A DNA stretch of 32,000 bases from an uncultured Actinomycetes bacterium (GCA_963835295.1 CAWIEX010000012.1:646089-678088), one strand, 5' to 3'; positions 2,102-27,497 are shown, numbered from the stretch's first letter. Program-made: numbers and translations. The notes: generated from the letters alone by a model not told the origin.

Positions 2102-2104
2102 GCG

Positions 2105-3145: not shown

Positions 3146-3236
3146 CACCCACCCAGACGCCCTGCCGGCGGCCATCCTTCCCGGGCGTGCCGTTCGGTGG
3201 ACGCCGGCGGGCGGTCCACCGTACCCTCCGGAGTCG

Positions 3237-4232
3237 ATGAAGCGGACGCCTGTCTCGCGGTTCCCCGACGTGCAGGCGTCGGCACCGGCCATCCAGGTGT
3301 CGCTCTCGCGGGTGGGCGTGACGAACGTCGAGAAGGTCATCCGGATCGGCCCCGCTGGCGCCGAGCAGCTCTACTACGCCAAGCTCGACTGCTTCGTCGA
3401 TCTCGGCCCGGACCAGAAGGGCGCGCACATGTCGCGCTTCGAGGAGGTCGTCAACGACGTCATCGGCGAGGTGGTGCTGGGCGAGAGCGGCTTCAAGGCC
3501 GAGCAGCTGGCCCAGCACATGGCCGAGCAGGTGCGCGAGCGCCAGGACGCCCGGCGCGCCGAGGTGACGATCGCCGCTCGCTATCCCGAGCACAAGCCCG
3601 CGCCGGTGTCGGGGATCGCGACGCAGGAGATCTACACGCTGCACGGCGCGGCGGTCGCCTCCGAGCACGGGACGCGCCGCCTGGTGGGGGTCGCCGCGCA
3701 GGGGATGACCGCGTGCCCGTGCGCGCAGGGGCTCGTCGCCGGGCGCTCGCGCGAGCGCCTCGTGGCCGACGGCTTCAGCGACGACGAGATCGAGCGCATC
3801 CTCGAGGCCGTTCCGGTGGCCACGCACAACCAGCGCGGCCTGGGCACGCTGTACCTCGGGCTGCCCGAGGCCTGCGAGAGCGACGTGGACGCCGCGGAGC
3901 TCCTCGGGATCGTCGAGGACTCGATGTCGAGCGAGATCTACGAGCTCATGAAGCGCTCCGACGAGGGGGCCGTGGTCGAGAAGGCCCACCGGCGCCCGCG
4001 CTTCGTCGAGGACTGCGTGCGCGAGGCGATCCGCGGCGCGATCGAGCGCTTCGACAGCTTGGGCGACGACGCGTTCGTGTCCTCGCGCCAGGAGAACCTC
4101 GAGACCATCCACCAGCACAACGTCGTCGCCGAGCGCTTCGGGCTGCTGGGCGAGTTGCGCCGCGAGCTCGACGCGGGCCTCCACGTCGCGCATCACATGA
4201 CGATGCGCGAGTGGCTCGACGCCGCCGCCTGA
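3237..4232 (+). CDS. folE2: GTP cyclohydrolase, FolE2/MptA family (type IB/IV, COG1469)
   Basis: Taken from ATG 3237 within track ORF 2862..4232. GGAG lies just upstream. Family motifs are 'DQKGAHMSRFEE', 'AQGMTACPCAQ' and 'VPVATHNQRGLG'. I cannot distinguish FolE2 from MptA chemistry by eye. Confidence 0.8.
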   Translation: MKRTPVSRFPDVQASAPAIQVSLSRVGVTNVEKVIRIGPAGAEQLYYAKLDCFVDLGPDQKGAHMSRFEEVVNDVIGEVVLGESGFKAEQLAQHMAEQVRERQDARRAEVTIAARYPEHKPAPVSGIATQEIYTLHGAAVASEHGTRRLVGVAAQGMTACPCAQGLVAGRSRERLVADGFSDDEIERILEAVPVATHNQRGLGTLYLGLPEACESDVDAAELLGIVEDSMSSEIYELMKRSDEGAVVEKAHRRPRFVEDCVREAIRGAIERFDSLGDDAFVSSRQENLETIHQHNVVAERFGLLGELRRELDAGLHVAHHMTMREWLDAAA

Positions 4233-5324
4233 TCAGCGCAGCCGGATCTGGTCGGCGCCGTGCACCCTGAGGTGGTCGAGCGCGGAGCCGCTCGCCTCGG
4301 CCACGCCCAGGCGGTCGACGAGCGCCGTGTAGCGGCCTCCCGCCAGGCCGTCGGCCAGGACCGCCGCACCGTGCGCGGCGGCGCTGGCGCCCGCGCCGAC
4401 GCCCGCCACCGCCCGCACGGGCGCGAGGCCCGCAAGGCGCTCGCCGAGCGCCTCGATCACGCCCGGCGCCCGCGCCAGGCGCCCCGCGACGAGGACCTCG
4501 CGCGGCGCCGGCGCGCTGGCGGTCAGCGCCAGCGCCGCCTTCGCCGCGCCCTCCTCGAGCGCGAGCCACCCCTCGCGGTGGCGCGGGTCGTGTCGCAGCC
4601 CCGCAAGCCCGGCGGAGAGATCGAGCTCGCCCCGCGGGTCGAGCGCGCCGCCGCTGAACACGGTCCGCTTCGAGAGCGCGCCGCCAAGGAGGTAGGCCAC
4701 CTCGGCGTCGAGCGCACCGCACGCCCGCGCCCCGATCGGGCCGGCCGAGCCGCCGAGCCCATCGACGATGCGCCCGCCGTCGACGGCCACCGCAGCGCTG
4801 AACCCACCGCCGAGCTCGAGCATAACGAACGAGGTCTCGGCGAAGTCGACGGCGAGGCGGCGCGCCTGGTCGACGATGCACAGCGCGACGCTCGCGACCT
4901 TGTCGGCGGTCCCCAGGTCGATGCGGTTCCACTTGCGGTGCGCGGGGATCGTGGGCAGGTGGATCGCTCCCGGGCCGAAGACCAGTGGCAGGCCCGCGGC
5001 GATGAGCGCGTGCACCGTCGCGCGCATCCCGCCGACGCCGACGGGGCCGTGGGGCTCGTCCTCACGCAGCAGCACGATGAGCGCAAGCTCGCGCTCGCCG
5101 ACCTGGTCGCCGGGCACGAGCGGCAGCCCGTAGCCGGCCGGGCCGAGCACGAGCTCGAACGGCCCGTGCTCGACGAGCACCTCGACCAGCGGCGCGGGAT
5201 CGACGCCCACGTCGGCGGTGGCGAAGCTGCGCTCGAGGACGACCTCGCCGCCGTCGAGCGCGCACACGTCGAACGACACGGTCCCCGGGTCGATGCCGGC
5301 CACCCGCGGGCCGTCGCGGCTCAA
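4233..5324 (-). CDS. ASKHA-fold protein, DUF1464 / 'predicted butyrate kinase'-like
   Basis: 363 aa. The N-terminal 'VAGIDPGTVSFDV' is phosphate-1-like, and 'MLELGGGFSAAVAVDGGRIVDG' is also present. The TTG start overlaps the mtd stop (TTGA). The family assignment is from memory only. Confidence 0.5.
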   Translation of the reverse strand: MSRDGPRVAGIDPGTVSFDVCALDGGEVVLERSFATADVGVDPAPLVEVLVEHGPFELVLGPAGYGLPLVPGDQVGERELALIVLLREDEPHGPVGVGGMRATVHALIAAGLPLVFGPGAIHLPTIPAHRKWNRIDLGTADKVASVALCIVDQARRLAVDFAETSFVMLELGGGFSAAVAVDGGRIVDGLGGSAGPIGARACGALDAEVAYLLGGALSKRTVFSGGALDPRGELDLSAGLAGLRHDPRHREGWLALEEGAAKAALALTASAPAPREVLVAGRLARAPGVIEALGERLAGLAPVRAVAGVGAGASAAAHGAAVLADGLAGGRYTALVDRLGVAEASGSALDHLRVHGADQIRLR

Positions 5325-6190
5325 ACGAGCTCCTTGGCGACCTCGTACACGGTGTCGGTGTCGAAGACCTTGTCGTTGCTCTCGAACATCCGCCGTATGC
5401 AGGTCTTGTGGACCTTCATCTTCGGCCCGCCGATGGCCAGCGCGCCGAGCACGAGCTTGCCGTCGTAGTCGACGAGGTCGTCGGTTGCCTTGGTGCCCTC
5501 GAGGCCGAGCGGGTCGGCCGCGTTGTAGTCCGCCAGCAGCTCGAGGCTCGGGTGCTGAGACCAGAAGTCCTCGCGCAGCACCTCCACGCCGGCCGGTCCC
5601 GCGGACAGGACGACCTGCGCGTCCTCCAGGGTCGCCTCCAGCTCCGAGCGGTCCTTGGGCTCGCGCGGGTCCAGGCCGAGCTCCTCGGCCGCATCGAGGC
5701 CCCGGGGGCGGCGATAGGGGCGGTCGTCGTCGAAGAGGTCCGGCGGGAGCGGGGCCACGACGACCTCGCAGCCCTCCTTCTGCAGCAGGATCGCCGACCG
5801 CAGCCCGACGGACCCGAGACCGAGCACGGCCGCCCGCTTGCCCTTCAGGTCGTAGCTCTTGGCGATCCGCGCGATCGTCGTCGCCGCGGTCGTGTTGCAG
5901 CCGTTGGAGTCGAGCATCACGGAGACCTTGAACGGTCCGAAGAACGCCTTCTGGACCTCGGCGAAGATCTCCTCGCCGGCGGCCACGTGCTTGCCCCCGA
6001 CCCAGATGGCCGTGTTCTTCAGGTCATCTGGCCCGCGGGTGAAGAACGCGTCCTGCGCGAGCGCGCGCGCGTCCTGCGGCTTCACCTTGCCGTGGGAGAG
6101 CAGGACGTCGACGTCGGCGTCGTGGGCCACGATCGCGTCGAACGGGCTCGGGTGCTCCTCGGTGTCGAGCTGGAGCAGGATTCTCTTCAC
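5321..6190 (-). CDS. mtdB: NAD(P)-dependent methylene-tetrahydromethanopterin dehydrogenase (MtdA/MtdB family)
   Basis: 289 aa. The sequence 'MKRILLQLDTEEHPSPFDAIVAHDADVD...AIWVGGKHV...FGPFKVSVMLDSNGCNTTAAT...LGLGSVGLR' is typical of Mtd. The GTG start overlaps the upstream stop (GTGA). MtdA and MtdB were not discriminated. Confidence 0.85.
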   Translation of the reverse strand: MKRILLQLDTEEHPSPFDAIVAHDADVDVLLSHGKVKPQDARALAQDAFFTRGPDDLKNTAIWVGGKHVAAGEEIFAEVQKAFFGPFKVSVMLDSNGCNTTAATTIARIAKSYDLKGKRAAVLGLGSVGLRSAILLQKEGCEVVVAPLPPDLFDDDRPYRRPRGLDAAEELGLDPREPKDRSELEATLEDAQVVLSAGPAGVEVLREDFWSQHPSLELLADYNAADPLGLEGTKATDDLVDYDGKLVLGALAIGGPKMKVHKTCIRRMFESNDKVFDTDTVYEVAKELV

Positions 6191-7494
6191 GATCCCTCCT
6201 CGGTCTCGTCGTCGGGCGATGCCTTGGTGGAGCGGGCGGTCAGCCGGACGCGCTCGCGACGCGGCTCGGCGAAGGTCAGGTAGCCCCAGTCGAGCGGGGA
6301 CTCCTGGCGGTAGTTCTTGCCCAGCCCCCGGGCGATGGAAGCCTTCATCAGCTCCTTGCCCAGGTAGAAGGCGTGGGTGTGCTCGTCGACGCCGAGCTCG
6401 TCGAAGATCGCGTTGATGTCGGTGCCCTTCACGAAGCGCTCGGCGTTGAAGGCGTAGATCCAGTCGGCGTCCGCGAAGATGCGGATGTTGGGGTCGGTGA
6501 TGCTCGCGTGCAGCTCGCGCAGCTCGGCTTCCGTGTAGGGGCGGACCTCCTCGTCCTTGATCGTCAGCAGCCGCCCGTCGACGTGCTTGGGCGGCGTCCC
6601 CTCCTGCTGGGCGAAGTGCATGAGCTGGGCGGCCAGGACGGCCTCCCGGACCGCGCCCCGCGCCCAGTCGATGACCTCCGTGGTCAGCACGTTGCGGATC
6701 CCGAGCTCCTGACAGAAGCCGAGCAGCATCGCCGTGACCCCGGTGGTGTCGGCCTCGGTGAGCTCGGTCAGGTTGCCGATGCCCATCAGCATCTCGGCGT
6801 CGGGGTGGCGGCGGCGCGTCTCCAGGTAGCGGCCGAGGCTCGCGGCGAAGCCCGAGCCGATCGGCTCGATGATCGGGTCGACGAGGAAGGGCTTGCCGAG
6901 CGCTTGGAGGTGGGCGATGGTGGCGTCGAGGCTGTCGAGGTCATCGGGCGTGTCGGGGATCAGCACCGGCGTCGCGCGCAGCTGCTGCGCGACATGGCGG
7001 TTGTCCCCGTTGAGGCTGAGGACGTAGTCCACGCCCGCCGCGTCGGCCATGAGGATCTCGTCGGGGTCAAGCGTGTCGATGCTGAGCGTGAAGCCGCGCG
7101 CCTTGAGGTCGGCGATCACCTCCGGGCCCTCGTCGAGCCAGTCGCGGTCCAGCGAGAGCCCGAGGTCGATGACGTCGGCGCCGGCGTCGCGGTAGTAGCT
7201 CGCCGCCGCGACGATACGCTCGCGGTCCAGGCGCGGGACGTTGTTGATCTCGGCGAAGACCCGGATGTCGCGCGCGCCGTAGCGCGAGCGGGCGTCGGCC
7301 TGCCCGAAGAAGGCGGGCAGCCGCTTGAGGTCGGCCGGGCCCTTGTCGGCCGGGATGCCGAAGTGCTCGCTGAGCACCGCGGGGTCGCCCTCGCACAGGC
7401 CCGGGATCATGATCCGCGTCACGTCCGGCGGGAGCTCCAGGCGCTTGGCGATCCAGGCCGGGGTCATGAGCGCCGCGACCGTGATCTTCATCAC
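6187..7494 (-). CDS. Dihydropteroate synthase-like protein of H4MPT biosynthesis (pterin-binding barrel plus N-terminal domain); 5' end probably extends to ~7600
   Basis: 435 aa from GTG 7494. It has a pterin-binding DHPS-like core ('GADVIDLGL...TLSIDT...MGIGNLTELTEADTTGV'). The frame stays open up to the pcd stop and encodes 'RYLFVTGKLAAPALRETLRRAELPFDYDVAV', which resembles the family N-terminus (see finding). Confidence 0.8.
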   Translation of the reverse strand: MMKITVAALMTPAWIAKRLELPPDVTRIMIPGLCEGDPAVLSEHFGIPADKGPADLKRLPAFFGQADARSRYGARDIRVFAEINNVPRLDRERIVAAASYYRDAGADVIDLGLSLDRDWLDEGPEVIADLKARGFTLSIDTLDPDEILMADAAGVDYVLSLNGDNRHVAQQLRATPVLIPDTPDDLDSLDATIAHLQALGKPFLVDPIIEPIGSGFAASLGRYLETRRRHPDAEMLMGIGNLTELTEADTTGVTAMLLGFCQELGIRNVLTTEVIDWARGAVREAVLAAQLMHFAQQEGTPPKHVDGRLLTIKDEEVRPYTEAELRELHASITDPNIRIFADADWIYAFNAERFVKGTDINAIFDELGVDEHTHAFYLGKELMKASIARGLGKNYRQESPLDWGYLTFAEPRRERVRLTARSTKASPDDETEEGS

Positions 7495-7605
7495 GGCGAC
7501 GTCGTAGTCGAACGGCAGCTCCGCGCGCCGCAGCGTCTCGCGCAGCGCGGGCGCCGCGAGCTTGCCGGTTACGAAGAGGTAGCGATCGGCTATCGCGGGG
7601 GCCCA

Positions 7606-7983
7606 CTAACGTCCGCCCTTGCTGAAGACGAACTTGTTCGGGGTGCCCTCCAGCGCGCTGCCTTCCTCCGGGCGCCACAGCACCGTGTCCTCGATCTTGC
7701 GCGCCACCGCGAAGTCCTTGTCGGTGATGCCGCCGGCGGCATGGTTGCGCAGCTTGACCCACAGCTTGCCCCAGGTCACCGAGAGGTCGGCGTGGTGGTA
7801 GGCCGCCTCGCACACGAAGCCGACGGCGTTGACGACCATGAGCGTCGTCGGCCAGCCATCGGTGTTGTACTTGCGACGGATCCACTCGCCCTCGAGGTAC
7901 CAGTCGTCGAGGCCGTGCTCCTTGAGCTTGGCCTCCACCTCGTCGGCCTCGTAGGTCTTGGGCTTGGCGTCTGTCTCTGCCAT
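7606..7983 (-). CDS. Pterin-4-alpha-carbinolamine dehydratase (PCD/DCoH family)
   Basis: 125 aa. AAGGAGG lies 6 nt upstream of ATG 7983. Family-like segments are 'LEGEWIRRKYNTDGWPTTLMVVNAVGFVCEAAYHHADLSVTWGKLWVKL' and 'GGITDKDF'. Confidence 0.8.
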   Translation of the reverse strand: MAETDAKPKTYEADEVEAKLKEHGLDDWYLEGEWIRRKYNTDGWPTTLMVVNAVGFVCEAAYHHADLSVTWGKLWVKLRNHAAGGITDKDFAVARKIEDTVLWRPEEGSALEGTPNKFVFSKGGR

Positions 7984-8026
7984 TGCAGTCCTCCTTCGGT
8001 CACCGCTGACTACAGCACCACGGGCG

Positions 8027-8686
8027 CTACATGACCACCCCGCCGTTGACGTTGACCGCCTGTCCGGTGACGAACGCGGCCTCGGGCGAGGCGAGGTAGA
8101 GCGCTGCGCCCGCCACGTCCTGCGGCCGGCCCCACCGCCCGAGCGGCGTCGCCTCCGCGACCGAGCGGTGGAACTCGCGATCGGCCTGCTCGGCGAAGCT
8201 CGTCTCGATCCACCCGGGGCACAGGACGTTGACGCGCACGTCGGGAGCCAGGGCGCGCGCGAGGCTCTTGCTGAAGGCCAGGACGCCGCCCTTCACGGCG
8301 GAGAACACCAGCGGGTCGTCGCCGGCCATGCCGATCGTCACGTGGTCCCAGCTCATGTTGAGGATCGTCCCGCCGCGCTCCTGCTCGCGCATTATCTCGC
8401 CGGCCGCGTACGAGCAGGCGATCGTGCCCTTGAGGTCGACCGCCAGCAGCGCGTCGAGCTTGCGCTCCCACTCCCAGGCCGCCGCGTCGCCGGTGAGCAC
8501 GTCGGCGCCCGCGTTGTTGACCCACACGTCGAGGCCGCCGAGCTCGTCGCGCGCCTGCGCCACGAGGCGCTCGCACGCCTCGCGCGTGCCGAGGTCGGCC
8601 TGCGCGACCAACGCGCGCCCGCCGCGCCCGGCGATCGCGTCGGCGACCTCGCGGGCGCGCTCCGGCGACGCGCGGTGCGTCAGCAA
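8027..8686 (-). CDS. Short-chain dehydrogenase/reductase (SDR); true 5' end must lie upstream, at >=8767
   Basis: The canonical ORF runs from TTG 8686 and contains 'NNAG' and the catalytic region 'SAVKGGVLAFSKSLA' (an S...K arrangement). The cofactor motif 'RLAGLRAVVTGASSGIGRAIAETF' is encoded in-frame upstream (8687-8790) with no ATG/GTG/TTG. An in-frame CTG sits at 8767. Confidence 0.8.
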   Translation of the reverse strand: MLTHRASPERAREVADAIAGRGGRALVAQADLGTREACERLVAQARDELGGLDVWVNNAGADVLTGDAAAWEWERKLDALLAVDLKGTIACSYAAGEIMREQERGGTILNMSWDHVTIGMAGDDPLVFSAVKGGVLAFSKSLARALAPDVRVNVLCPGWIETSFAEQADREFHRSVAEATPLGRWGRPQDVAGAALYLASPEAAFVTGQAVNVNGGVVM

Positions 8687-8812
8687 GACCGACGCGCCCT
8701 GCGCGGCGAACGTCTCGGCGATGGCGCGGCCGATCCCGCTGCTCGCTCCGGTGACGACAGCGCGCAGGCCGGCGAGCCGGCCTGCGCCGGCGGATGGATC
8801 CGACGTGGCCGG

Positions 8813-9325
8813 TCAGTCCTCCACGCCGCCCGCGAACGGATGGCGCGCCGCCTCGGCCGAGTCGGCGACCGCGCTCACGCTCGGCTCGCCCTTCAGCGCG
8901 CGCTCGATCGACTCCCTGGTCGCCTGGTAGTTGTAGTCGAAGATCTTCTTGTCGTCCGTGGCTTCCCAGTGGATGAAGACGCCGACGATGAGGCAGAGGT
9001 CGTCGACGTCGCCCGCGGGGATGATCCCGTCGCGTACCGCGTGGACGACGGCGCGCGAGACCGCCGCCTGGGCGGGGCCGAACATCTGCACGGCCTGCGT
9101 CGCGCCCTTCATCGTGACCTTGTTGGAGATGATCGTGTCGGGCTTGCACGGAAGGTTGGGCGTGACCACCGCGAGGAGGTTCGTGTGACCCTCCTTCTGA
9201 TTGACGAGCGAGTTCGCGAACGCCTCGCCGACCGGCCCGCTCTTGGAGCCGATGAGGAGGTCGATGTGGGCGACCTCGTTGCCCTCGCCGACGAGCGACT
9301 CTCCAACCATGAACGCAGCGGCCAT
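8813..9325 (-). CDS. fae: Formaldehyde-activating enzyme (5,6,7,8-tetrahydromethanopterin hydro-lyase)
   Basis: 170 aa. GGAGGA lies 6 nt upstream of ATG 9325. The protein is near-collinear with my recollection of proteobacterial Fae: '[20 protein letters not shown]...[13 protein letters not shown]...[10 protein letters not shown]...GVFIHWEA...HPFA'. Confidence 0.92.
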
Positions 9326-9350
9326 GACTCGTCCTCCATATCGTTGTCCG

Positions 9351-10292
9351 GTGCCTGAGAAGTCAGGGAACCGGCCGGCGACTCTAACTTCTGGCGCCGA
9401 GAGGGGTCAAGCGGGCGCCCAGCGGTCCTCCGCACGTGTCCGCGCTGCGACCGTTCGTACCCCCGACGCCGTCGCCGGTGCCGCGCAGCTGGCCTGCGTC
9501 CTGGAGGTCAGCGCCGAGAAGCCGGGCAACATCACGCCGAGCCACGACTTCCACGACACCACCTACGAGGACATGGTGCGCAGCGCGATCGCGGTCGGCC
9601 CCGAGCTTGCGCGCGCGGGTGAGCGCGGCGTGGGCGACACGGTCCTGGCGGTCGTGCAGGCGTCGCGGCGGGCGGCGCCGGCGAACACGAACCTCGGGAT
9701 CGCGTTGCTGCTCGCTCCGCTGGCCAGGGCGGCGCTCTCGGGCGGGCCGCTGCGGGCGGGGCTCGCGGCGACGCTGGGCGCGCTCGACGTGGCCGACGCC
9801 CGGGCCGCGTACGCGGCGATCCGCCTCGCCGGGGCCGGCGGCCTGAGCGAGCGCGTCGAGCACGACGTGCGCTCCGAGCCGACGGTGCGCCTGCGCGAGG
9901 CCATGGCGAGCGCCGCCGCCCGCGACTCGATCGCCGCGGAGTACGTGAGCGACTTCGCCTTGACCTTCGAGACGGCTACTCCCGCGCTCGTCGCGGCGCT
10001 GGGCGACGGGCTCGGCGAGCGCGACGCGATCGTCGAGCTTCACCTGCGGCTGCTCGGCGCCGCGCCGGACACCCTCATCGCGCGCAAGCGCGGCGCCGAG
10101 GCCGCGGCGCGGGTGTCGGCGCGGGCACGCGACGTCCTGAGCGCCGGAGGGGTGCGCACGGCGGCCGGCCAGCAGGCCCTGCGCAGCTTCGATGCGTCGC
10201 TGCGCGAGCCGGGCAACGCGCTGAACCCGGGGACCACCGCCGATCTCGTGACAGCGACTCTGTTCGTCGCGCTGCTCGAAGGTATCCTCTGA
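9351..10292 (+). CDS. Triphosphoribosyl-dephospho-CoA synthase (CitG/MdcB)-like protein, H4MPT-island type
   Basis: In the frame of track ORF 9201..10292. '[25 protein letters not shown]' matches the CitG 'E..xxPKPGxV' region, and '[13 protein letters not shown]' and 'GTTADL' are also present. The start is uncertain. I chose GTG 9351 because TATCGT (TANNNT) lies 6 nt upstream. ATG 9324 would overlap the fae start codon. Confidence 0.65.
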
Positions 10293-10341
10293 CGCCGTCG
10301 CACCGGGCGAGCCACTTCTCCTGATTGCTCTGAGCGCGCGC

Positions 10342-11436
10342 ATGCTCGCCGATCTGGCGATGCGCGACGGTCATCGGGTGGCCGCGTTCGATCTCTTCGG
10401 CGACCTCGACCTGCGACGGGGCGGGGCGCGCGTCGTGGCGCTGCCGGGCGGGAGCCTGACCGCGCTGGTCGACGCCGCGATGCACGTGCCGGCAGGTGCT
10501 GTGGTCTACGGGGCGAGCTTCGAGAACCACCCGGCCCTCGTCGCGCGGCTGGCCGAGCGCCACGCGCTGCTGGGCAACGGGCCGCAGACGCTGCGCGCCG
10601 TGCGCGCCCCGCAACGGCTGGGGGCAGCGCTGCGCGACGCCGGCCTCCCGTATCCGCGCACCTTCGCGGCGGCGCCCGAGGATCGCTCGGGCCGCTGGCT
10701 GCGCAAGCCGTTGCGCGGCGGCGGGGGCACGCGCGTGCGCGCGTGGCGCGGCGGCGCGCTTCCGCCCGGCGCGGTCGTGCAGGAGCGCGTCGACGGCGTC
10801 GCGTGCTCGGCGGCGGCCGTCGGTGACGGGGTGGATGCAGTCGTGCTCGGGCTCACCGAGCAGCTCGTCGGGCGCCGGGCGTTCGGCGTGCGCGGCTACC
10901 GCTGGTGCGGGAACGTCGTCCCCCCGCGCCTGCCCGCCAGCGAGCGCGATGCCCTGCTGGGCCAGGCGCGCGCGATCTGCTCGTGCCTGGCCGCGGCGTT
11001 TGCCCTGCGAGGGCTCTTCGGCGTCGACTTCGTCTGGGACGGCGAGCGCGCGTGGACGATCGAGGTCAACCCGCGTCCCACGGCCTCGCTCGAGGCGATC
11101 GAGGCAATTCGGACCCACCCGCCCGGCGTCTTCGACGCGCACCTGCGGGCGTGCGCCGGCGAGCTGCCACAGGTGGAGGGCGAGCGCGCGGGCGCGGCCG
11201 GCAAGGCCGTGCTCTTCGCCACCGAGGACGTCGTCGTCGGCGACAGCGTCGGCTGGCTGGAGCGCGGGGTGCGCGACGTCCCGCGCCCCGGCGAGCGCAT
11301 CGCCGCGGGGCATCCGATCTGCACCCTCGTGGTCGCCGGCGCGACGGCGCAGGACGTGCTCGACGAGCTCGAGGCGCAGGCCGCGCGGTTGCGCGCGGAG
11401 CTCGAGCCGCGCGTGGAGGTGACGGCGGGTGGCTGA
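10342..11436 (+). CDS. ATP-grasp ligase of the H4MPT/methanofuran island (possibly MfnD-like)
   Basis: 364 aa from ATG 10342. ATP-grasp elements are 'WLRKPLRGGGGTRV', 'VVQERVDG' and 'GLFGVDFVWDGERAWTIEVNPRP'. The frame is open from 10252 and encodes 'PLLLIALSAR' just upstream without a canonical start (see finding). Confidence 0.7.
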   Translation: MLADLAMRDGHRVAAFDLFGDLDLRRGGARVVALPGGSLTALVDAAMHVPAGAVVYGASFENHPALVARLAERHALLGNGPQTLRAVRAPQRLGAALRDAGLPYPRTFAAAPEDRSGRWLRKPLRGGGGTRVRAWRGGALPPGAVVQERVDGVACSAAAVGDGVDAVVLGLTEQLVGRRAFGVRGYRWCGNVVPPRLPASERDALLGQARAICSCLAAAFALRGLFGVDFVWDGERAWTIEVNPRPTASLEAIEAIRTHPPGVFDAHLRACAGELPQVEGERAGAAGKAVLFATEDVVVGDSVGWLERGVRDVPRPGERIAAGHPICTLVVAGATAQDVLDELEAQAARLRAELEPRVEVTAGG

Positions 11437-16932: not shown

Positions 16933-16943
16933 CCGTCGCGATC

Positions 16944-20245: not shown

Positions 20246-20267
20246 GCGCCCTTGCTACCGTGGCCCC

Positions 20268-21152
20268 ATGGACGCGCAGCAGCGCCAGGACCCCGGGCCT
20301 GCCACCCTGGCCGACCCCACGCTCCGGGAGTACAAGCTCGTCGGCGGGATGGAGACCTTCGCCAACCGCAGCTTCTGGCCGGGCTTCTTCTCCCGCGTCG
20401 CTGCCCGCAAGCAATGGGATGCGGCGGCGATCGACTTCGCACCCGACGTCCGCGCGTGGCAGGAGCTTCCCGACGATCGCCGCCAGCGCCTCACCACGAT
20501 TCTCGCCGGCTTCCGCGTGGCCGAGGACGCCGTCGCCGAGAATCTCACGCCGTTCGTCGTCGCGGCGAACAGGGAGACCCTGGCCTCCCAGGAGAGCCTG
20601 ATGGCCTGGACGTTCTCCCTGCAGCGCCGCGACGAAGCGCGCCACGCGCGCCTGTTCGACCGCATCGCGGGAGAGATACTCGGGCTGCCCGGCGAGACCC
20701 CCGACGAGCGCCGCGCGGCGGCCCGCGAGTATGCCCCGCCGGCGATCCTCGAGCTCTTCGAAGACCAGTTGCCCGCGTTGACCGCGGAGCTCACGGCGGG
20801 TGAAGCCGGGCTGGGCGAGGGCGTCAGCCTCTACCACATGCTGCTCGAGGGAGTCGTCTTCAACGCCGGCACCAACGCGCTGCTCGACGACCTGGCCGAC
20901 GGCGCGCTGCCCGGAGTGCGCGAGGGTGTGGAGCGCGTCGAGCGCGACGAGCGCTGGCACGTGGGCTTCGGCCTGCGCTGCCTGATCGAGACCCTGCCCT
21001 CTCAAGAGCGCATCGATGACCTGGTCGCGCGCGGCGGAGCGGCCGCCGCGGCCTGGGGTGACGCCGTCCCAGCCGCCATACGCGAGCGCAGCGCACGCAC
21101 GTGCGCACACCGGCTGCACGTCTCCGGGTTCACCGAGACGCGCGCGGCGTAG
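20268..21152 (+). CDS. Ferritin-like diiron/dimetal carboxylate protein, ribonucleotide reductase R2-like
   Basis: 294 aa. The R2 layout is 'FWPGFF...W..IDF..D...W..L', followed by 'AEDAVAENL', 'RRDEARHARLF', 'LLEGVVFNAG' and 'ERDERWHVGFG' (E, ExxH, E, ExxH). No R1 subunit lies nearby. Confidence 0.75.
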   Translation: MDAQQRQDPGPATLADPTLREYKLVGGMETFANRSFWPGFFSRVAARKQWDAAAIDFAPDVRAWQELPDDRRQRLTTILAGFRVAEDAVAENLTPFVVAANRETLASQESLMAWTFSLQRRDEARHARLFDRIAGEILGLPGETPDERRAAAREYAPPAILELFEDQLPALTAELTAGEAGLGEGVSLYHMLLEGVVFNAGTNALLDDLADGALPGVREGVERVERDERWHVGFGLRCLIETLPSQERIDDLVARGGAAAAAWGDAVPAAIRERSARTCAHRLHVSGFTETRAA

Positions 21153-21849
21153 CGGCGCACGCCGCGCGCAGGGCGCGGACTCGCGTGGGGTCGAGCGACC
21201 CCGTGCGGCGATCCTCTGCACAGGCGGCCGAGCGGACGCCGACGATGTCGGCGCCGGTCGCGCCCACGGCCGGCAGGTCGTCCGCGCGCAGCGCACCGGC
21301 CAGCGCGATCGCCAGCCCCAGCTCGTGGGCCTCAGCGACGAGCGCCGTGAGCGCGTCGGGCGCGAGCCAGTCGAGGAGGCCGCGGCCGTCCTTGACCGCC
21401 GTGTCGAGCAGGCACACGTCGACGCCGGCGGCGCGCGCAACGCGCGGCAGCAACTCGGGCGCCAGCGGCGCCGACGCTACGCGTCGGGCGTCCGCGTAGG
21501 CGCCCGCCACCACCACCGCGTCGGGCGCCGCCTCGCGCACCGCGCGCAGCAGCGCGACCGCCTCGGACTCGGTGGAGGCGCCCCAGAGCCCGACCTTCAC
21601 GAAGGCCGCGCCGCTGTGCGCGGCGCCGAGCGCGGCGAGCGCGGCGGTGCCGGGCAGGTTGGGCATGTCGCCGATCGCGGCGCTGACGGGCAGCGCGTCG
21701 GGAACGGCCGCGCGGATGGCGGCTATCACCGCCGGCGACGGCGCTCCCAGCGAGCCCTCGGCCGGGTTCTTGACGTCGACGATCTCGGCGCCGGCCGCCG
21801 CGGCCGCGCCCGCCTCGCCGGCGTCGACGACGCTCACGAGCAGCTTCAT
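21130..21849 (-). CDS. mfnB: (5-formylfuran-3-yl)methyl phosphate synthase (DUF556; methanofuran biosynthesis)
   Basis: Taken from ATG 21849 in track ORF 21130..22449. Matching segments are 'MKLLVSVVD...EIVDVKNPAEGSLGA...VSAAIGDMP...FVKVGLWG...LLDTAVKDGRGLLDW...ALAGAL...DIVGVRSAAC', collinear with my recollection of archaeal MfnB. Confidence 0.88.
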   Translation of the reverse strand: MKLLVSVVDAGEAGAAAAAGAEIVDVKNPAEGSLGAPSPAVIAAIRAAVPDALPVSAAIGDMPNLPGTAALAALGAAHSGAAFVKVGLWGASTESEAVALLRAVREAAPDAVVVAGAYADARRVASAPLAPELLPRVARAAGVDVCLLDTAVKDGRGLLDWLAPDALTALVAEAHELGLAIALAGALRADDLPAVGATGADIVGVRSAACAEDRRTGSLDPTRVRALRAACAATPRASR

Positions 21850-22783
21850 CAGCGCTCCACCAGCGCGCCGCGGTTGTCGAACGTCACGAGCTCCACGCTT
21901 GCATCGCCCGCGACCACGTCGTGCATGCGATGCGCGAGCTCGCGTCCGGCCGTCTCGCTGCCGACGACGCCGTAGACCGCGGGCCCCACGAGCTCTGGCC
22001 GGCGCCGGCCGCCCCGTGGCGCAGCAGCGCCTCGACGAGCGCGCCGGCGTGCGGATGGAAGCGCCCGCCCTGCACGGTGGCGAACGCGTCGCCGACGAGC
22101 TGCTGGACCCGCGTGAGGGCCGCCCCGAACTCCTCGACCTCGCCCTCGACCAGCGCCGGGAGCAGCGACGTGAGCACGAGCTGCGCGATCTCCGCCGATC
22201 GCTCGGGCGAGGGCACGAGCCGCCCGAACGCCTCCTCCTCGGCGACCCCGGACAAGCCGGCCTCGGCGCGCGGGATGACGAGCACGACGCGCCACTCCTC
22301 GGGCATCGGGTGGTGCGCCAACAGCGGCGCGGGGCGCTCGACCCCGCGCCGCACCCCGCCCTCGACGACGAGGCCCCCCAGCGCGAAGGTCCACGTCCCC
22401 ACCGCGGAGCGCGCCGCGCGGCCGACCGCCTCGGCCAGCTGCGGCGCATCGACCGTCCGCCCGTGCAACGCGGCCAGCGCCTGACCCACCGCCAGCGCGA
22501 GCTTCGTGCCCGAGCCCAGGCCGACGTGCGACGGGATCGCCTCGAGCACGCTCAGGCGCGCACCGCCCGCGAGCCCCAGCGCCTCCTGGCAGCGCCGCGC
22601 GAAGGTCAGCGCGCGCTCCGCTTCGGCCCCCTCGGCGGACAGCTCGTCGGCCGTCCGCGCCTCGACCACGACCGCGGGGCGGTCGACCGACACCCCGAGC
22701 CCGCCGAAGCGCCGCCCGCTGTCGCCGGCGACCGCGAGCATGCCCAGGTGCAGGCGCGCCGGCGCCTCAACCCGGACGGTCAA
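21849..22783 (-). CDS. mptG: Beta-ribofuranosylaminobenzene 5'-phosphate synthase (GHMP-kinase fold), with an apparent 1-nt frameshift at 21980-21987
   Basis: TTG 22783 overlaps the DUF447 stop (TTGA). Matching segments are 'TVRVEAPARLHLGM...IPSHVGLGSGTKLALAVG...GAGQSSWGP' in the frame of ORF 21884..23077. The family-like C-terminus 'AVYGVVGSETAGRELAHRM...VTFDNRGALVER*' is in the frame of ORF 21849..22394. The span is 935 nt, which is 3n-1. Confidence 0.8.
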
Positions 22784-23361
22784 GGGTCGCCGACCGCCGC
22801 TCGCAGGTGGCCCGCGACGTACTGCATCGCGTCGCGCTCGCGTGGCCCGGCCGTCTTGTCGACGAGCACCTGCAGCCGGTCCAGCTCGGCGCGGAGGTCC
22901 TCCGCCGCGAGCAGGCGGGCTCGCGAGGCGAGGATCGACGCCTCGAGGACCGCGTGGCGCGCACGATTGAAGCCGAGGAACTCGCGCCCGGTGCCACGGG
23001 CGACGACGACGGTGCTGACGCGGGCCCGCTCCGTGCTCTCGTCGATCGCCTCCACCCGGACCTCGCGCCAGGAGCACGCATCGTCGAGCACCGCGCCCTC
23101 GACGCTGGCCGCCGGACGCGTCGCCGGATGCGGGTCACCGAGCGCGGCCTGGCTGAAGAGCAGGATGTCGTCGGTCAGGTTCACCACCGCCGCCCCGGTC
23201 GCCCGCAGGTTGCGCAACGTCCGCGTCCCGGCGTAGGGCTTGATGACGATCCGCTCCTCGCCCCACTCGACGCCCATCGCGCCGCAGTTGACGCTGCCGT
23301 CGAGGTTGATCGTCGTCACCACGGTCTCGATGATCGGCCCAGCCGGGCGGGCGCCGTCCAT
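22780..23361 (-). CDS. DUF447-family split-barrel (flavin-binding-like) protein of H4MPT islands
   Basis: 193 aa. Matching segments are 'IIETVVTTINLDGSVNCGAMGVEW...IKPYAGTRTLRNL...AVVNLTDD'. ATG 23361 directly follows the GS-like stop (TAGATG). Confidence 0.7.
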   Translation of the reverse strand: MDGARPAGPIIETVVTTINLDGSVNCGAMGVEWGEERIVIKPYAGTRTLRNLRATGAAVVNLTDDILLFSQAALGDPHPATRPAASVEGAVLDDACSWREVRVEAIDESTERARVSTVVVARGTGREFLGFNRARHAVLEASILASRARLLAAEDLRAELDRLQVLVDKTAGPRERDAMQYVAGHLRAAVGDP

Positions 23362-24693
23362 CTAGAGCGCCTCCAGGTAGCGCGCGGTCTCCCAGTCGGT
23401 GACGGCGGCGGCCTGCGCCGCCAGCTCCCCGCGCCGCATCGCCACGCAATGCGCGACGACGTCGTCGCCGAGCCAGTCGCGGGCGAGCGCGCTGCGATCG
23501 AGCAGGTCGGTGGCCTCGGCCAGCGTCGGCGGGAGCGGCGGCGCCGTGCCGTTGGCCAGCGCATAGACGTCGCCGTCGACGGGCGCCGGCGGCTCGCAGG
23601 CGCGCCGCACGCCGTCCAGGCCGGCGGCCAGTGCCGCCGCGATGGCCAGGTACGGGTTGGCATCCGCGCCCGGCTGGCGGTGCTCCACGCGGGTGGCGCC
23701 GTCGCCGCGGCAGATCGCGCGCAGGCCGGCGGAGCGGTTGTCGAGGCTCCAGGTCGCGGTCGTGGCCGCCCACGAGTGCGCGGTGTAGCGGCGGTAGGAG
23801 TTCGGCGTGGGGGCGAAGATCGCGCTGAGCTCGGCCATGCCCGCCAGCAGGCCGCCGATGAAGTGGCGCATGGTCGGCGACAGGCCCTCGCCGTCGTCCA
23901 CACTGAGGTGCAGGTGGCACGAGCTGCCCGGCCAGTCCGAGCGCAGCTTGGCCATGAACGTCGCCAGCAGCCCCTGGCGCGCGGCGACCTCTTTGACCGC
24001 GCTCTTGAGCAGGAACGCCTCGTCTGCGGCCTGCAGGGCGGGCGCCGCGCGCAGGTTGATCTCGAACTGCCCCGGGCCCGCCTCGGGGTTGCACGCCTCG
24101 ACGGCCAGCCCGTAGCTCTGCAGCGTCTCGCGCACGCCTTCGACGAAGGGCTCGTGACGCGAGGCGGCCACGACGCCGTAGACGCTCGGCCGCTCGTCCA
24201 CCGCCACGAGCTGCGACGGGCGCTTGCCGAGCACCGATTGCGGCGTCTCGCGCAGCACATAGAACTCGAGCTCGACCCCGACGATCGGCTCGACGCCCAT
24301 GGACCGGGCGCGCGCGACGACCGAGCGCAGGACGGCTCGTGGCGACAGCGGGACGGCGCTGCCGTCGGGATCGACGAAGTCGCACAGCACGAGCGCCGTG
24401 CGATCGTGCCACGGGACGACCCGGGCGGTGTCGAGGTCGGGAATCGCGAGCATGTCGGGGTAGCCGGCGCGCGGGAACCAGCCGGCATGTCCCGGCGGGG
24501 GCTGGACCGGCTCGAGCTCGTCGACCGGCAACGCCCAGAGCACCTCGCACAGCGAGATGCCTCGCGTCGCCGCGCGATCCAGCTCGGCGATTGGCACGCG
24601 CTTGCCGCGCATGATCCCGTGCGTGTCGGCGCCTGCGAGGATCACCGTCTCGATGCCGCGGCGGCGCAACAGACGCAGGTGCTCCGGAGCCAA
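23362..24693 (-). CDS. Glutamine synthetase-family gamma-glutamyl ligase (GlnA-like, type I/III-like paralogue)
   Basis: These are the C-terminal 443 codons of track ORF 23362..25872, from TTG 24693. Matching segments are 'GVELEFYVL', 'NPEAGPGQFEINL', 'ATFMAKL...GSSCHLHLS', 'PTPNSYRRY', 'NRSAGLRA' and 'VEHRQPGADANPY'. The upstream part of the ORF is an antisense shadow of pabAB. Confidence 0.8.
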   Translation of the reverse strand: MAPEHLRLLRRRGIETVILAGADTHGIMRGKRVPIAELDRAATRGISLCEVLWALPVDELEPVQPPPGHAGWFPRAGYPDMLAIPDLDTARVVPWHDRTALVLCDFVDPDGSAVPLSPRAVLRSVVARARSMGVEPIVGVELEFYVLRETPQSVLGKRPSQLVAVDERPSVYGVVAASRHEPFVEGVRETLQSYGLAVEACNPEAGPGQFEINLRAAPALQAADEAFLLKSAVKEVAARQGLLATFMAKLRSDWPGSSCHLHLSVDDGEGLSPTMRHFIGGLLAGMAELSAIFAPTPNSYRRYTAHSWAATTATWSLDNRSAGLRAICRGDGATRVEHRQPGADANPYLAIAAALAAGLDGVRRACEPPAPVDGDVYALANGTAPPLPPTLAEATDLLDRSALARDWLGDDVVAHCVAMRRGELAAQAAAVTDWETARYLEAL

Positions 24694-24717
24694 CGTGGGC
24701 AGAGTGTAGATGCGGCC

Positions 24718-26790
24718 ATGCGCACGCTCCTGATCGACAACTACGACTCGTTCACCTTCAACCTCTTCCACCTGCTGGGGGAGGTCAACGGCCAGGAGCC
24801 GATCGTCGTGCGCAACGACGATCTGGCCTGGGAGGAGCTCGCCGCGCTGCCGGTGGACAACATCGTGATCTCGCCCGGGCCCGGGCGTCCCGAGCACGAG
24901 GGCGACGTCGGCATCTCGCTGGAGGTGCTCCAACGCGCCGAGATTCCCGTGCTCGGCGTCTGCCTGGGCCACCAGGCGCTGGCCCACGTGACCGGCGGCG
25001 CGATCGACCATGCCCCCGAGGTCATGCACGGGCGCCTGAGCCCGATCCACCACGACGGGCGCGGCCTGTTCGCCGGCATCCCGCAGGGCTTCGCGGCCGT
25101 GCGCTACCACTCGCTGGTCGTGGGCGGCCTGCCCGCCGAGCTGCGCGTGACGGCGTGGACGCCCGACGACGTCGTCATGGGGCTCGAGCACGCGTCGCGC
25201 CCGCTGTGGGGCGTCCAGTTCCACCCCGAGTCGATCTCCACCGAGCACGGCCGCACCCTGCTGCGCAACTTCCGCGACCTCACGCGCGAGCGGCGGCGTC
25301 CCGCGGCGCGCGCGGCCCGCTCGCCCGCCCAACCGGCTGCCGGCACGCGCTTGCACCATCGCACGCTCGAGACGTGGTGCGATCCCGAGGCGGCGTTCGT
25401 GGCCCTCTACGGCGCGCGCGATCACGCCGTGTGGCTCGACAGCTCGCGCGTCGAGCGGCGGCTCGCGCGCTTCTCGTTCATGGGCGCCCCAGAAGGCCCG
25501 CTCGGCCAGATCGTGCGCTACGACGTCGCCGACGGGCTGCTCACGGTGCAGCGCGCGGACGGGCGCGAGGAGCTGCGCGAGAGCGTCCTGGACTACTGCG
25601 AGCGCGAGCTCGCTCGCCTGGGCGCCGACGCCTCCGGCGTGCCCTTCGACTTCACCTGCGGCTTCGCCGGCTACCTCGGCTACGAGCTCAAGGCCGAGCT
25701 GGGCGGAGAGCTCGTGCACCGCTCGGCGCTGCCCGACGCGGCGCTGCTGCTCTGCGACCGGCTGATCGCCTTCGATCACGCCGAGCAGCGCGTGCACCTG
25801 CTCGCGCTCGCGGACGCAGAGGGGGCCGCGCAGGCCGACGCCTGGCTGACCGCCACCGAGCGCGAGCTGCAAGGGCTCGCCGGCCGGCCGCCGCCGGCGC
25901 TTGCCGCCTCACCCGCCCCGCCCGCCCCGCTGTCGTTCGTCGCGCGAGACGATCGCGACGCCTATCTGGCCAACATCGCGGCCTGCAAGCACGAGATCTT
26001 CGAGGGCGAGACCTACGAGATCTGCCTGACCACCGAGCTGCACAGCGACGACGCGATCGATCCGCTCGCCGCCTATCGCGCCCTGCGCGCCCGCAACCCG
26101 GCGCCGCACGCAGCGCTGCTGCGCCTCGGCGACGTGTCGGTGCTCAGCTCCTCGCCGGAGCGCTTCCTGCGGGTCGATCGGGAGCGGGTGGTCGAGTCCA
26201 AGCCGATCAAGGGCACCGCCCCGCGCGCGGCCCATCCCGCCGAGGACGCCTACCGGGGCGCGGCGCTGGCGGCCGACGAGAAGTCGCGCGCCGAGAACCT
26301 CATGATCGTCGACCTCGTCCGCAACGATCTCGGCCGCGTCTGCGCGCTGGGCAGCGTGGACGTCCCGGCGCTCATGGCGATCGAGTCCTACGCCACCGTC
26401 CACCAGCTCGTGACGACCGTCCGCGGCCGGCTGCGCGACGATGCCACCGCGATCGACTGCGTGCGCGCCGCGTTCCCGGGCGGCTCGATGACCGGCGCGC
26501 CGAAGCTGCGCACGATGAAGATCATCGACCGCCTCGAGGCCGGCCCGCGCGGCGTGTACTCCGGCGCGCTGGGGTTCCTCTCGGTCAATGGCACCGCCGA
26601 CCTCAGCATCGTCATCCGCACGCTGGTGGCGTCACGCCACGGCCTGCAGATCGGGACTGGCGGCGCGATCGTGGCGGCCTCGGATCCCGACGCCGAGCAC
26701 GACGAGATGCTGCTCAAAGCGCGCGCGGTGCTCGCCGCGGTCGGTGGGGTGCTCGCCGTCGACAGCGAGCTCAGCACCGCCCGCCGATGA
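24718..26790 (+). CDS. pabAB: Aminodeoxychorismate synthase, fused glutamine amidotransferase (PabA) and chorismate-binding (PabB) domains
   Basis: Taken from ATG 24718 in track ORF 22807..26790. The GATase part is 'MRTLLIDNYDSFTFNL...GVCLGHQAL...VQFHPES'. The PabB part is 'SSPERFL...KPIKGT...EKSRAENLMIVDLVRND...HQLVTTV...FPGGSMTGAPK...PRGVYSGALG'. Confidence 0.88.
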   Translation: MRTLLIDNYDSFTFNLFHLLGEVNGQEPIVVRNDDLAWEELAALPVDNIVISPGPGRPEHEGDVGISLEVLQRAEIPVLGVCLGHQALAHVTGGAIDHAPEVMHGRLSPIHHDGRGLFAGIPQGFAAVRYHSLVVGGLPAELRVTAWTPDDVVMGLEHASRPLWGVQFHPESISTEHGRTLLRNFRDLTRERRRPAARAARSPAQPAAGTRLHHRTLETWCDPEAAFVALYGARDHAVWLDSSRVERRLARFSFMGAPEGPLGQIVRYDVADGLLTVQRADGREELRESVLDYCERELARLGADASGVPFDFTCGFAGYLGYELKAELGGELVHRSALPDAALLLCDRLIAFDHAEQRVHLLALADAEGAAQADAWLTATERELQGLAGRPPPALAASPAPPAPLSFVARDDRDAYLANIAACKHEIFEGETYEICLTTELHSDDAIDPLAAYRALRARNPAPHAALLRLGDVSVLSSSPERFLRVDRERVVESKPIKGTAPRAAHPAEDAYRGAALAADEKSRAENLMIVDLVRNDLGRVCALGSVDVPALMAIESYATVHQLVTTVRGRLRDDATAIDCVRAAFPGGSMTGAPKLRTMKIIDRLEAGPRGVYSGALGFLSVNGTADLSIVIRTLVASRHGLQIGTGGAIVAASDPDAEHDEMLLKARAVLAAVGGVLAVDSELSTARR

Positions 26791-27497
26791 CAGCGCTGCT
26801 CGCGGCCGACTCGTGGCTCGTCGCCGACGGCCGCGCGCGCGCCGTCGAGCGCCACTGGGCCCGCTTCACGGCGACGTGCCGCGAGCAGGGCGTCTCGCCC
26901 GACGAGCTCGCGGCCTTCCGCGCCGAGGTCGAGCGCGCGCTGCCGTCGACGGGGCGCTGGTTCCCGCGCATCGAGCTGCGCGCGGACGGCGAGCTGGCCC
27001 TCGAGCTGCGGCCGGCGGCGCCGCGCGAGCCGGCCGTCGTGGCCTGGGTGGCCGATGTGCCCGACCCGCGCGTCGCGCCGCGGCGCAAGGGGCCCGACCT
27101 GGAGCGGCTGGGCGCCCTGCGCGAGCGCGCCGCGGCGCACGGCGCCGGCGAGGCCGTGATCGCCGACGGCGACGGCCGGCTGCTGGAAGGTGCGTACACG
27201 AGCCTGCTGTGGTGGGAGGGGGAGACGCTGTGCGCGGTCCCCGACGACGCGCCGATCCTCCCCGGGATCACGCGGGGGCTGGTGATCGAGCTGGCGCGCG
27301 CACGCGACACGCCGATGGCGCAGCGCCGCCCCCGGCCGCGGGAGCTGGCCGGCCGGGAGACATGGCTGGTCAGCGCCCTGCACGGGATCCGGGCCGTGAC
27401 GCGGTGGGCCGGCGGCGTGCTGCCGGCGATCGATACGCCGCGCGCAGCCGCCTGGCAGCGCCTGCTCGACGAGCTCGGCCCCCGTCAGCGCGTCTGA
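26787..27497 (+). CDS. pabC: Class IV aminotransferase-fold protein, aminodeoxychorismate lyase-like
   Basis: ATG 26787 overlaps the pabAB stop (ATGA). Matching segments are 'GEAVIADGDGRLLEGAYTSLLWWEG...LPGITRGLVIELA...ETWLVSALHGIRAV'. The sequence is divergent, so the function is inferred largely from coupling to pabAB. Confidence 0.6.
   Translation: MTALLAADSWLVADGRARAVERHWARFTATCREQGVSPDELAAFRAEVERALPSTGRWFPRIELRADGELALELRPAAPREPAVVAWVADVPDPRVAPRRKGPDLERLGALRERAAAHGAGEAVIADGDGRLLEGAYTSLLWWEGETLCAVPDDAPILPGITRGLVIELARARDTPMAQRRPRPRELAGRETWLVSALHGIRAVTRWAGGVLPAIDTPRAAAWQRLLDELGPRQRV

Follow-up and report, generated by a model that had tools for sequence, protein, structure and literature searches.

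A chromosomal gene cluster for predicted formaldehyde oxidation on tetrahydromethanopterin and methylofuran in a Solirubrobacterales genome, with a candidate for the missing dihydromethanopterin reductase

The window analysed here is a stretch of 32,000 nucleotides (nt) from the genome (G000; 23 contigs) of an uncultured Actinomycetes bacterium (GCA_963835295.1, CAWIEX010000012.1:646089-678088), and the block in question, referred to as the island, occupies window positions 3237-27497. It holds genes for the complete archaeal-type route, based on tetrahydromethanopterin (H4MPT) and methylofuran, by which formaldehyde would be oxidised to formate, together with most of the genes for making the two cofactors. 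The island had been described from the sequence alone as near-complete. The catalytic core and most of the cofactor genes bear this out, but AfpA/DmrA, MfnD and MfnA are absent, and two key genes are frameshifted in the assembly. A short-chain dehydrogenase/reductase (SDR) gene of the island is put forward, tentatively, as the source of the missing dihydromethanopterin reductase.

The window has a uniform G+C content of 74%, and long spurious open reading frames (ORFs) crowd all six frames. Genes were therefore called from third-position G+C (GC3), both by plotting it in each frame and with a hidden Markov model (HMM) of 7 states, and identities were taken from Pfam and NCBIfam. The frame plot and the HMM agreed on a single clean gene track through the window. 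All the genes listed in the sequence-only reading were identified by these models; transcription units numbered about seven, in place of the five tightly coupled operons proposed there. No tRNA gene and no Rfam match was found within the window in tRNA and Rfam scans. Five further genomes were compared in full: G024 and G189 (family f3, genus g35), G008 and G101 (the window's family), and G388, a Thermoleophilia genome of the same class as the host and a different order, whose island lies on contig G388:C5 (L077/L078). The order sample consisted of 300 other Solirubrobacterales genomes and the phylum sample of 400 genomes. L-numbers denote the loci containing Mch that were recovered in a scan of one genome per GTDB species, 75 in all. 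G000 itself measures 6.7 Mb with 5% contamination, and is twice the size of its sole same-genus relative (3.3 Mb).

The catalytic genes are found on both strands. The minus strand carries the gene for an NAD(P)-dependent methylene-H4MPT dehydrogenase, Mtd, of the MtdA/B/C family (5321..6190; PF09176 Mpt_N, 101 bits, cut-off 27), and that for the formaldehyde-activating enzyme Fae (8813..9325; TIGR03126, 241 bits, cut-off 118). On the plus strand follow fhcB (11429..12649; TIGR03129, 310.5 bits, just below the cut-off of 327.8, with the full length covered), fhcA (12646..14286; TIGR03121, 686 bits, cut-off 393), the formyltransferase gene fhcD (14283..15170; TIGR03119, 421 bits, cut-off 293), fhcC (15167..16084; TIGR03122, 255 bits, cut-off 131) and mch, for methenyl-H4MPT cyclohydrolase (15976..16932; TIGR03120, 403 bits, cut-off 229). 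The fhcC stop, part of an ATGA at the mch start in most relatives, reads ATGG in the window and in L005. The loss of this stop lengthens FhcC by 36 codons, and because of it the fhcC reading frame overlaps mch by 109 nt (15976-16084). In G008, mch is split and gives two matches, covering positions 1-114 and 114-312. Judged from these identities, Fae would condense formaldehyde with H4MPT, Mtd would oxidise methylene-H4MPT to methenyl-H4MPT, and Mch would open the ring of the latter to yield formyl-H4MPT, from which FhcABCD would move the formyl group to methylofuran and release formate.

The formaldehyde would probably come from an alcohol dehydrogenase dependent on pyrroloquinoline quinone (PQQ) that is encoded next to the island. 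Here a gene for an MSMEG_3727-family PQQ-associated protein (27674..28120, plus strand; TIGR04339, 250 bits) is followed by one for a PQQ dehydrogenase of the methanol/ethanol family (28164..29852, plus strand; TIGR03075, 612 bits, cut-off 480). The dehydrogenase has no signal peptide and contains a WDYD motif, in which the extra Asp two residues past the catalytic Asp (DYD) is taken, on established knowledge, to mark a lanthanide-type enzyme of the XoxF/ExaF/PedH kind. The pair adjoins the H4MPT genes in G024, G189 and G008 as well. To the right of the dehydrogenase lie genes for an MntP-like protein and a leucyl aminopeptidase, and then pqqA (31959..32000, plus strand; MTWVKPKFEFVELCSEVTSYLHHR), which straddles the window end, running 33 nt beyond it, and is followed by pqqB. 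Both the PQQ dehydrogenase and the pqqA reported beside the island are real. At the other end, the island boundary at MptA (3237) is sound. Positions 1-3175 hold a four-gene cassette divergent from mptA, encoding a zinc alcohol dehydrogenase/Rossmann-like protein, a PTPS/QueD-like protein, a GT4 glycosyltransferase and a methyltransferase-like protein. The PTPS/GT4/methyltransferase cassette was considered as part of the island and rejected, as it is not beside MptA in G024 and was not found near the G189 island.

The pterin branch would begin with an MptA-type GTP cyclohydrolase (3237..4232, plus strand; PF02649). The models favour MptA over FolE2, since TIGR00294 scores 290 bits (cut-off 220) and the FolE2 model stays below its own cut-off. 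Further members of the branch are MptG, beta-RFAP synthase (21849..22783, minus strand; TIGR00144, 152 bits, cut-off 113.5); a dihydropteroate synthase (DHPS)-like, MptH-like protein with a DUF6513 N-domain (6187..7593, minus strand; PF20123; TIGR00284, 166 bits, below the cut-off of 257); a pterin-4a-carbinolamine-dehydratase-like protein, PCD (7606..7983, minus strand; PF01329, 75 bits); a CitG-like protein of the Orf7 type (9351..10292, plus strand, start uncertain; PF01874, 224 bits); and the split-barrel, flavin-reductase-like DUF447 protein (22780..23361, minus strand; PF04289 and PF20766). PCD and DUF447 are present in alphaproteobacterial islands too. These six proteins would form the pterin branch, for which a PabA-PabB fusion, aminodeoxychorismate synthase (24718..26790, plus strand; TIGR00553, 363 bits, cut-off 328), and a PabC-like lyase of the class IV aminotransferase fold (26787..27497, plus strand; PF01063, 83 bits) would supply p-aminobenzoate.

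Around the conserved N-terminus of the DHPS-like protein there is no ATG, GTG or TTG codon, and the gene starts with an ATA at 7593, 12 nt past the PCD stop. The same codon is used in four close relatives, where ATA directly follows TAG, and the position is ATG in L007 and GTG in L019. Loss of the start by a homopolymer indel, suggested by an out-of-frame GTG at 7604, was rejected on alignment, which places the in-frame ATA at the homologous ATG/GTG codon.

The methylofuran core genes mfnB, mfnE and mfnF are all present in the island. MfnB, the 4-HFC-P synthase (4HFCP_synth), is encoded at 21130..21849 on the minus strand (PF04476, 235 bits); the MfnF-like gene at 18551..19601 on the plus strand (TIGR03123, 294 bits, cut-off 244); and the MfnE-like kinase, as a separate gene, at 19595..20245 on the plus strand, starting from GTG 19595 (AA_kinase; NF040622, 100 bits, below cut-off). 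An ATP-grasp_3 ligase of the MyfA/OrfY type (10342..11436, plus strand; PF02655, 77 bits) shares 26-35% identity with its positional equivalent in alphaproteobacterial islands, and its role is taken from its counterpart OrfY/MyfA (Hemmann 2021, PMC8141765). A RimK-type glutamate ligase of the MyfB/MptN family (16944..17828, plus strand; NF040720, 240 bits, below the cut-off of 350; TIGR00768, 188 bits) has Orf5 as its counterpart, that is MyfB, the methylofuran polyglutamate ligase (PMC8141765). A HisA/F-related gene (17794..18570, minus strand; PF00977, 125 bits) is of the Orf17 type, and Orf17 is essential for methylofuran and dispensable for dephospho-H4MPT in M. extorquens (PMC8141765). 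Methylofuran would be made with MfnB, MfnE, MfnF and the MyfA-like, MyfB-like and Orf17-like proteins.

Two genes of this branch were sought without success. MfnA was not detectable in G000, where TIGR03812 reaches at best 138 bits (cut-off 299). MfnD (NF040722) has no match in G000 and was not found in 12 other island-bearing Solirubrobacterales genomes; matches of 21-26 bits to this model in eight g35 genomes, right beside mch, apparently correspond to the MyfA-like gene. Just upstream of mfnF, the alphaproteobacterial loci, G388 and the Phycisphaeraceae locus L070 carry an MfnD-like ATP-grasp gene with NF040722 as its best NCBIfam model.

Two of the cofactor genes are interrupted in the assembly. 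MfnF is a single ORF of 335-367 amino acids in every relative and is split over two frames in the window, with a 2-nt deletion near 19413 relative to all 11 aligned relatives. An MfnF-MfnE fusion, suggested by a first Pfam reading, was rejected as an artefact of this deletion, as the frames of the relatives show two genes. MptG, also one ORF in relatives, occupies two frames in the window owing to a 1-nt deletion in a G4/C4 run near 21983 (11 relatives). If these shifts were real, both cofactor pathways would be broken in this strain and the cluster would be a decaying relic making neither cofactor. Both deletions stand against all 11 relatives, the one in mfnF lies outside any simple homopolymer, and loss does happen in the lineage, as the same-genus genome G073 has no mch. 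The pattern of frame switches across the assembly speaks otherwise. Switches were counted with the GC3 HMM and a test for a stop codon near each same-strand switch. G000 contains 575 same-strand switches without a nearby stop, with a rate of 5-8 per 100 kb where contigs exceed 600 kb, rising to 20-130 per 100 kb in small ones. Around the window there are 9 in 132 kb, the same density as in the rest of the contig. The relatives show mostly 0 to 2 per 20-kb locus, with none in 7 of 15 loci tested, and 13 in 21 kb were counted in L009 (the MFD02159.bin.2.87 locus), which comes from a poor, error-rich metagenome-assembled genome (MAG). No other gene of the island is disrupted, and GC3 in these genes is 0.87-0.99. 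The coverage-like pattern of the switches fits indel errors of long-read MAG assembly, which probably account for both deletions, and decay of the island is considered unlikely.

The sequence-only reading had suggested a high-GC Gram-positive host, and the nearest Mch sequences, synteny, shared flanks and tree all place the window in the Solirubrobacterales (Thermoleophilia), that is, in a soil actinobacterium. The best eleven to thirteen Mch matches (79-86% amino acid identity) are from Solirubrobacteraceae, Paraconexibacteraceae or unclassified "Actinomycetes" MAGs, and the next-best, which belong to Planctomycetota, Asgard archaea and Pseudomonadota, reach no more than 52%. When all window proteins were searched by tblastn, the whole island was found syntenic at 67-99% amino acid identity in 11 close loci. 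In the Mch tree the Solirubrobacterales sequences form a clade of their own (SH-aLRT 97), apart from those of Pseudomonadota (100) and Planctomycetota (98). Mch of G388 sits on a long branch off the Solirubrobacterales clade, weakly joined to Asgard (SH-aLRT 86), possibly through long-branch attraction. In G008, of the same family, the island is placed between the same MntP-like/PQQ-dehydrogenase genes and the same leucyl aminopeptidase gene.

Within the order the island is patchily distributed: 12 of the 300 other genomes of the order sample gave an Mch match, representing 4 of 81 genera and two families, and the same-genus genome is negative; in the phylum sample 2 of 400 genomes are positive, both of the same class. 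Such a spread would speak for a recent acquisition of the island from Proteobacteria or Planctomycetes. Against this stand the separate Solirubrobacterales Mch clade with its low identity to any other phylum, the 74% G+C throughout, the match of the flanking genes to those of the same-family genome, and a gene content unlike that of alphaproteobacterial islands, and recent acquisition is therefore very improbable. The own Mch clade, the shared flanks and the lack of any tRNA gene, Rfam match or compositional break identify the island as a resident chromosomal cluster, neither a mobile island nor a recent import.

Taken as a whole, the block is probably a genuine chromosomal gene cluster for converting formaldehyde to formate on H4MPT and methylofuran, long resident in the Solirubrobacterales lineage; the enzyme activities and the direction of flux are those we infer from gene identities. 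Several points weigh against this reading. FhcB and a number of the cofactor genes do not reach their NCBIfam equivalog cut-offs, the assembly has frameshifts in mptG and mfnF, and the relatives are all MAGs with no cultured representative. The genes read would fit methylotrophic growth and detoxification alike.

The final reduction of dihydromethanopterin (H2MPT) to H4MPT is the step for which the island holds no recognised gene. The known dihydromethanopterin reductases are DmrA, of the dihydrofolate reductase (DHFR) family, the flavoprotein DmrB/AfpA, and the archaeal DmrX. The AfpA model (TIGR02699, cut-off 192) gave at most 31.6 bits in G000 and the 12 other island-bearing Solirubrobacterales genomes, and the DHFR family (PF00186), to which DmrA belongs, had no match in G000, G024, G008 and G101 or in G388. 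AfpA is found at 212 bits inside the G388 island, just upstream of mptG, and in three alphaproteobacterial loci an AfpA homologue lies directly upstream of the DHPS-like gene.

In the window, the gene for a FabG-like classical SDR is located at 8027..8806 on the minus strand (PF13561, 184 bits). No ATG, GTG or TTG is found ahead of its Rossmann motif, and the likely start is an ACG at 8806, two codons past the fae TGA and behind GGAGG. This ACG is conserved in six relatives; L004 has no ACG and a TTG further down, and indels downstream are multiples of 3. The SDR gene was present in every Solirubrobacterales island inspected, at 60-92% identity, and in 12 of 12 loci covering the region. It always adjoins the DHPS-like gene, with PCD in between where PCD is present, and this holds in genus g35 too, where fae has moved 17 kb. 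The SDR gene is on the side of the DHPS-like gene where AfpA is found in the alphaproteobacterial loci; it is the immediate neighbour of the DHPS-like gene in G008 and G101, and PCD separates the two in the window and g35. With all candidates scored at E of at most 1e-35, G388 and four Mch-negative relatives, one of them the same-genus genome, gave no SDR orthologue.

The complementary distribution of SDR and AfpA, together with their shared position by the DHPS-like gene, makes the SDR a candidate dihydromethanopterin reductase. It could possibly be the NAD(P)H-dependent enzyme of this clade, a non-orthologous replacement that would supply the last reduction in place of AfpA/DmrA, and we put this forward with caution. 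Its TGxxxGIG motif is that of an ordinary FabG-like classical SDR, and the NCBIfam and PDB searches returned generic FabG similarity with no specific resemblance to a pteridine reductase. The contrast with AfpA rests on few independent lineages, namely one Solirubrobacterales clade as against G388 and one alphaproteobacterial group.

Alternatively, the SDR could act elsewhere, reducing a ring-opened ribosyl (Amadori) intermediate to the ribityl form, or another substrate of the island. As a ketoreductase of the FabG/glucose-ribitol-dehydrogenase type it would suit such chemistry. The bacterial enzyme for the ribofuranosyl-to-ribityl step is not known, and Orf17 can be dispensed with for dephospho-H4MPT in M. 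extorquens (PMC8141765). On this assignment the final reductase would stay unassigned in 13 genomes and the AfpA-bearing islands would need a further enzyme for the ribityl step, and a single replacement is the simpler account of the complementary distribution and the position shared with AfpA. A role in the ribityl step is accordingly judged improbable, and the SDR is retained as a tentative candidate for the H2MPT reductase.

Three further genes of the island were examined for linkage to the pathway. DUF1464, an ASKHA ("butyrate-kinase-like") protein, is encoded at 4233..5324 on the minus strand (PF07318, 258 bits) and is island-linked. All 12 Mch-positive genomes of the order sample have it, in each case on the contig that carries mch; the sample otherwise yielded it in just 4 fragmentary genomes, which belong to the same two genera, and about 284 others had none. 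In G388 it lies inside the island between the DHPS-like gene and fhcD, and in the Isosphaeraceae locus L016 it adjoins mtd and fae. A PDB sequence search gave no match. A role as a replacement for HPPK (FolK/MptE) was rejected, as FolK is present in all 7 genomes tested. In a metagenome protein collection, over 3,700 homologues were matched at E of at most 1e-10, and each of the best 120 clusters (90% identity) shares 82% identity or more with the window protein; the clade is therefore common in the sequenced (mostly JGI) samples.

The second gene, also island-linked, encodes an R2-like di-metal carboxylate protein (20268..21152, plus strand; PF00268, 40 bits). Its nearest PDB entries are the R2lox structures 6qrz, 7qbp and 3ee4, and the R2lox NCBIfam models give at best 75 bits (cut-off 194). 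Two ExxH motifs (EARH and ERWH) are evident in the alignment with 6qrz, in which neither of the lone Glu ligands could be placed. Orthologues, defined by more than 300 bits and 61-65% identity, occur in 11 of 12 Mch-positive genomes as against 2 of 288 Mch-negative ones, both of the latter being incomplete g35 genomes. In 10 of these 11 genomes the gene and mch are 2-17 kb apart, and in G221 it is on another contig. It was not found in G101, nor in the stretch of the G388 island read, which ends inside mfnF.

The third gene encodes a glutamine synthetase (GS)-like gamma-glutamyl ligase (23362..24693, minus strand; PF00120, 310 bits). All NCBIfam models stay below their cut-offs, among them those for type III GS, GmaS and gamma-glutamylputrescine synthetase (249 against 470, 236 against 650 and 221 against 429). 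By these cut-offs the protein is neither GlnA nor GmaS, and its nearest PDB entries are 5dm3, the GmaS structure 9qur and PA5508 (4hpp). It is kept at 80-88% identity in 8 close loci and is absent from L007 and L010. In the g35 islands a 40%-identical GS-like gene lies between DUF1464 and MptA, and its best match in G000 is the GS-like gene of the window. The islands of G008, G101 and G388 do not have it, G008 and G101 hold paralogues of 39-41% identity elsewhere, and the closest homologues in the order sample (55-62%) sit in Mch-negative genomes. On these last grounds the GS-like protein was rejected as a strictly co-distributed substitute for MfnD. Its linkage to the island is partial, and it is a weaker candidate for the gamma-glutamylation of tyramine or tyrosine.

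As an alternative, SDR, R2-like, DUF1464 and GS-like might all be passengers without a role in the pathway. SDR and GS-like belong to huge generic families, the related genomes are non-independent samples, and the distribution of GS-like, with its best homologues outside Mch-positive genomes, as well as the lack of R2-like in G101 and G388, would fit this. DUF1464, however, is kept in the island through three rearranged Solirubrobacterales layouts, in G388 of another order and in the Isosphaeraceae locus. SDR stays beside the DHPS-like gene, or separated from it by PCD, though fae has moved away in G024 and G189, and has no orthologue in the four Mch-negative relatives, and R2-like tracks Mch closely. 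The passenger explanation is thus quite unlikely. DUF1464 and R2-like are firmly linked to the island. The proposal that the extra genes are candidates for missing cofactor steps holds in that DUF1464, SDR and R2-like travel with the pathway, and fails in part for GS-like.

More speculative than the assignment of the SDR itself, and doubtful at present, is the wider suggestion that it would represent a fourth, unrelated class of dihydromethanopterin reductase and that DUF1464 and R2-like would catalyse cofactor steps still unassigned in bacteria. Such steps might be, for example, the ligation of glutamate to tyrosine or tyramine, or an oxygen-dependent tailoring of methylofuran or H4MPT. As predicted from sequence, the SDR would share with the known reductases the proposed reaction, and with AfpA the place beside the DHPS-like gene, and would differ from them in its unrelated, classical SDR fold.

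When compared with the proteobacterial cluster of the Methylorubrum extorquens type (PMC5020050, PMC8141765), the core of fae, mtd, mch and fhcABCD is common to both, as are mptG, the DHPS-like gene, PCD, CitG-like (orf7), DUF447, mfnB, mfnE and mfnF, MyfA-like, MyfB-like, Orf17 and pabB. Of the window genes, 17-19 have counterparts in the three alphaproteobacterial loci, at 30-63% amino acid identity. These loci contain AfpA and MfnD and no SDR, whereas the window island is without AfpA/DmrA and MfnD/Orf1 and adds SDR, DUF1464 and R2-like and, in part of the clade, GS-like and MptA. The window island differs further in its Gram-positive actinobacterial host and in an alcohol dehydrogenase without signal peptide. 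The G388 island shares mtd, fhcBADC, mch, the DHPS-like, CitG-like, MyfA-like, MyfB-like and Orf17-like genes, mfnF and the embedded DUF1464, but has AfpA and the MfnD-like ligase inside and a different arrangement; SDR, like R2-like, was not found in the contig stretch read there. In the planctomycete sets, where DUF1464 is beside mtd and fae in the one Isosphaeraceae locus, the genes form small scattered groups rather than a 24-kb block, and no SDR or R2-like orthologues were seen in the loci compared.

Both gaps in the island have been met before. AfpA is unrecognisable in Planctomycetes and some Proteobacteria (Chistoserdova 2016, PMC5020050), and the Glu-Tyr ligase, the first glutamate ligase of methylofuran, is unknown in methylotrophs without MfnD (Hemmann 2021, PMC8141765); the missing reductase and ligase are therefore recognised gaps. 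The pathway, most of its genes and its genome-based presence in "Actinomycetes" were already known, the latter merely as an entry in a list of phyla with pathway genes (Chistoserdova 2016, PMC5020050). The literature searched contained no paper on Thermoleophilia or Solirubrobacterales, in agreement with the earlier statement that the pathway is functionally uncharacterised in the host group. What is new is a defined variant gene set in which AfpA and MfnD are absent and SDR, DUF1464 and R2-like are present, and with it a set of testable candidates. The island thus yields genes that can be cloned as candidates for the final H4MPT reductase and the first methylofuran glutamate ligase steps. Solirubrobacterales are among the most abundant soil Actinomycetota, and Solirubrobacteraceae MAGs are reported to take up label in soils under 13C-methanol SIP (PMC10994693). 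In about 4% of the sampled species, from few genera, the lanthanide-type PQQ alcohol dehydrogenase, the H4MPT route and the cofactor genes are brought together in one block, and these bacteria are therefore candidates for hitherto unrecognised consumers of methanol or formaldehyde in soil.

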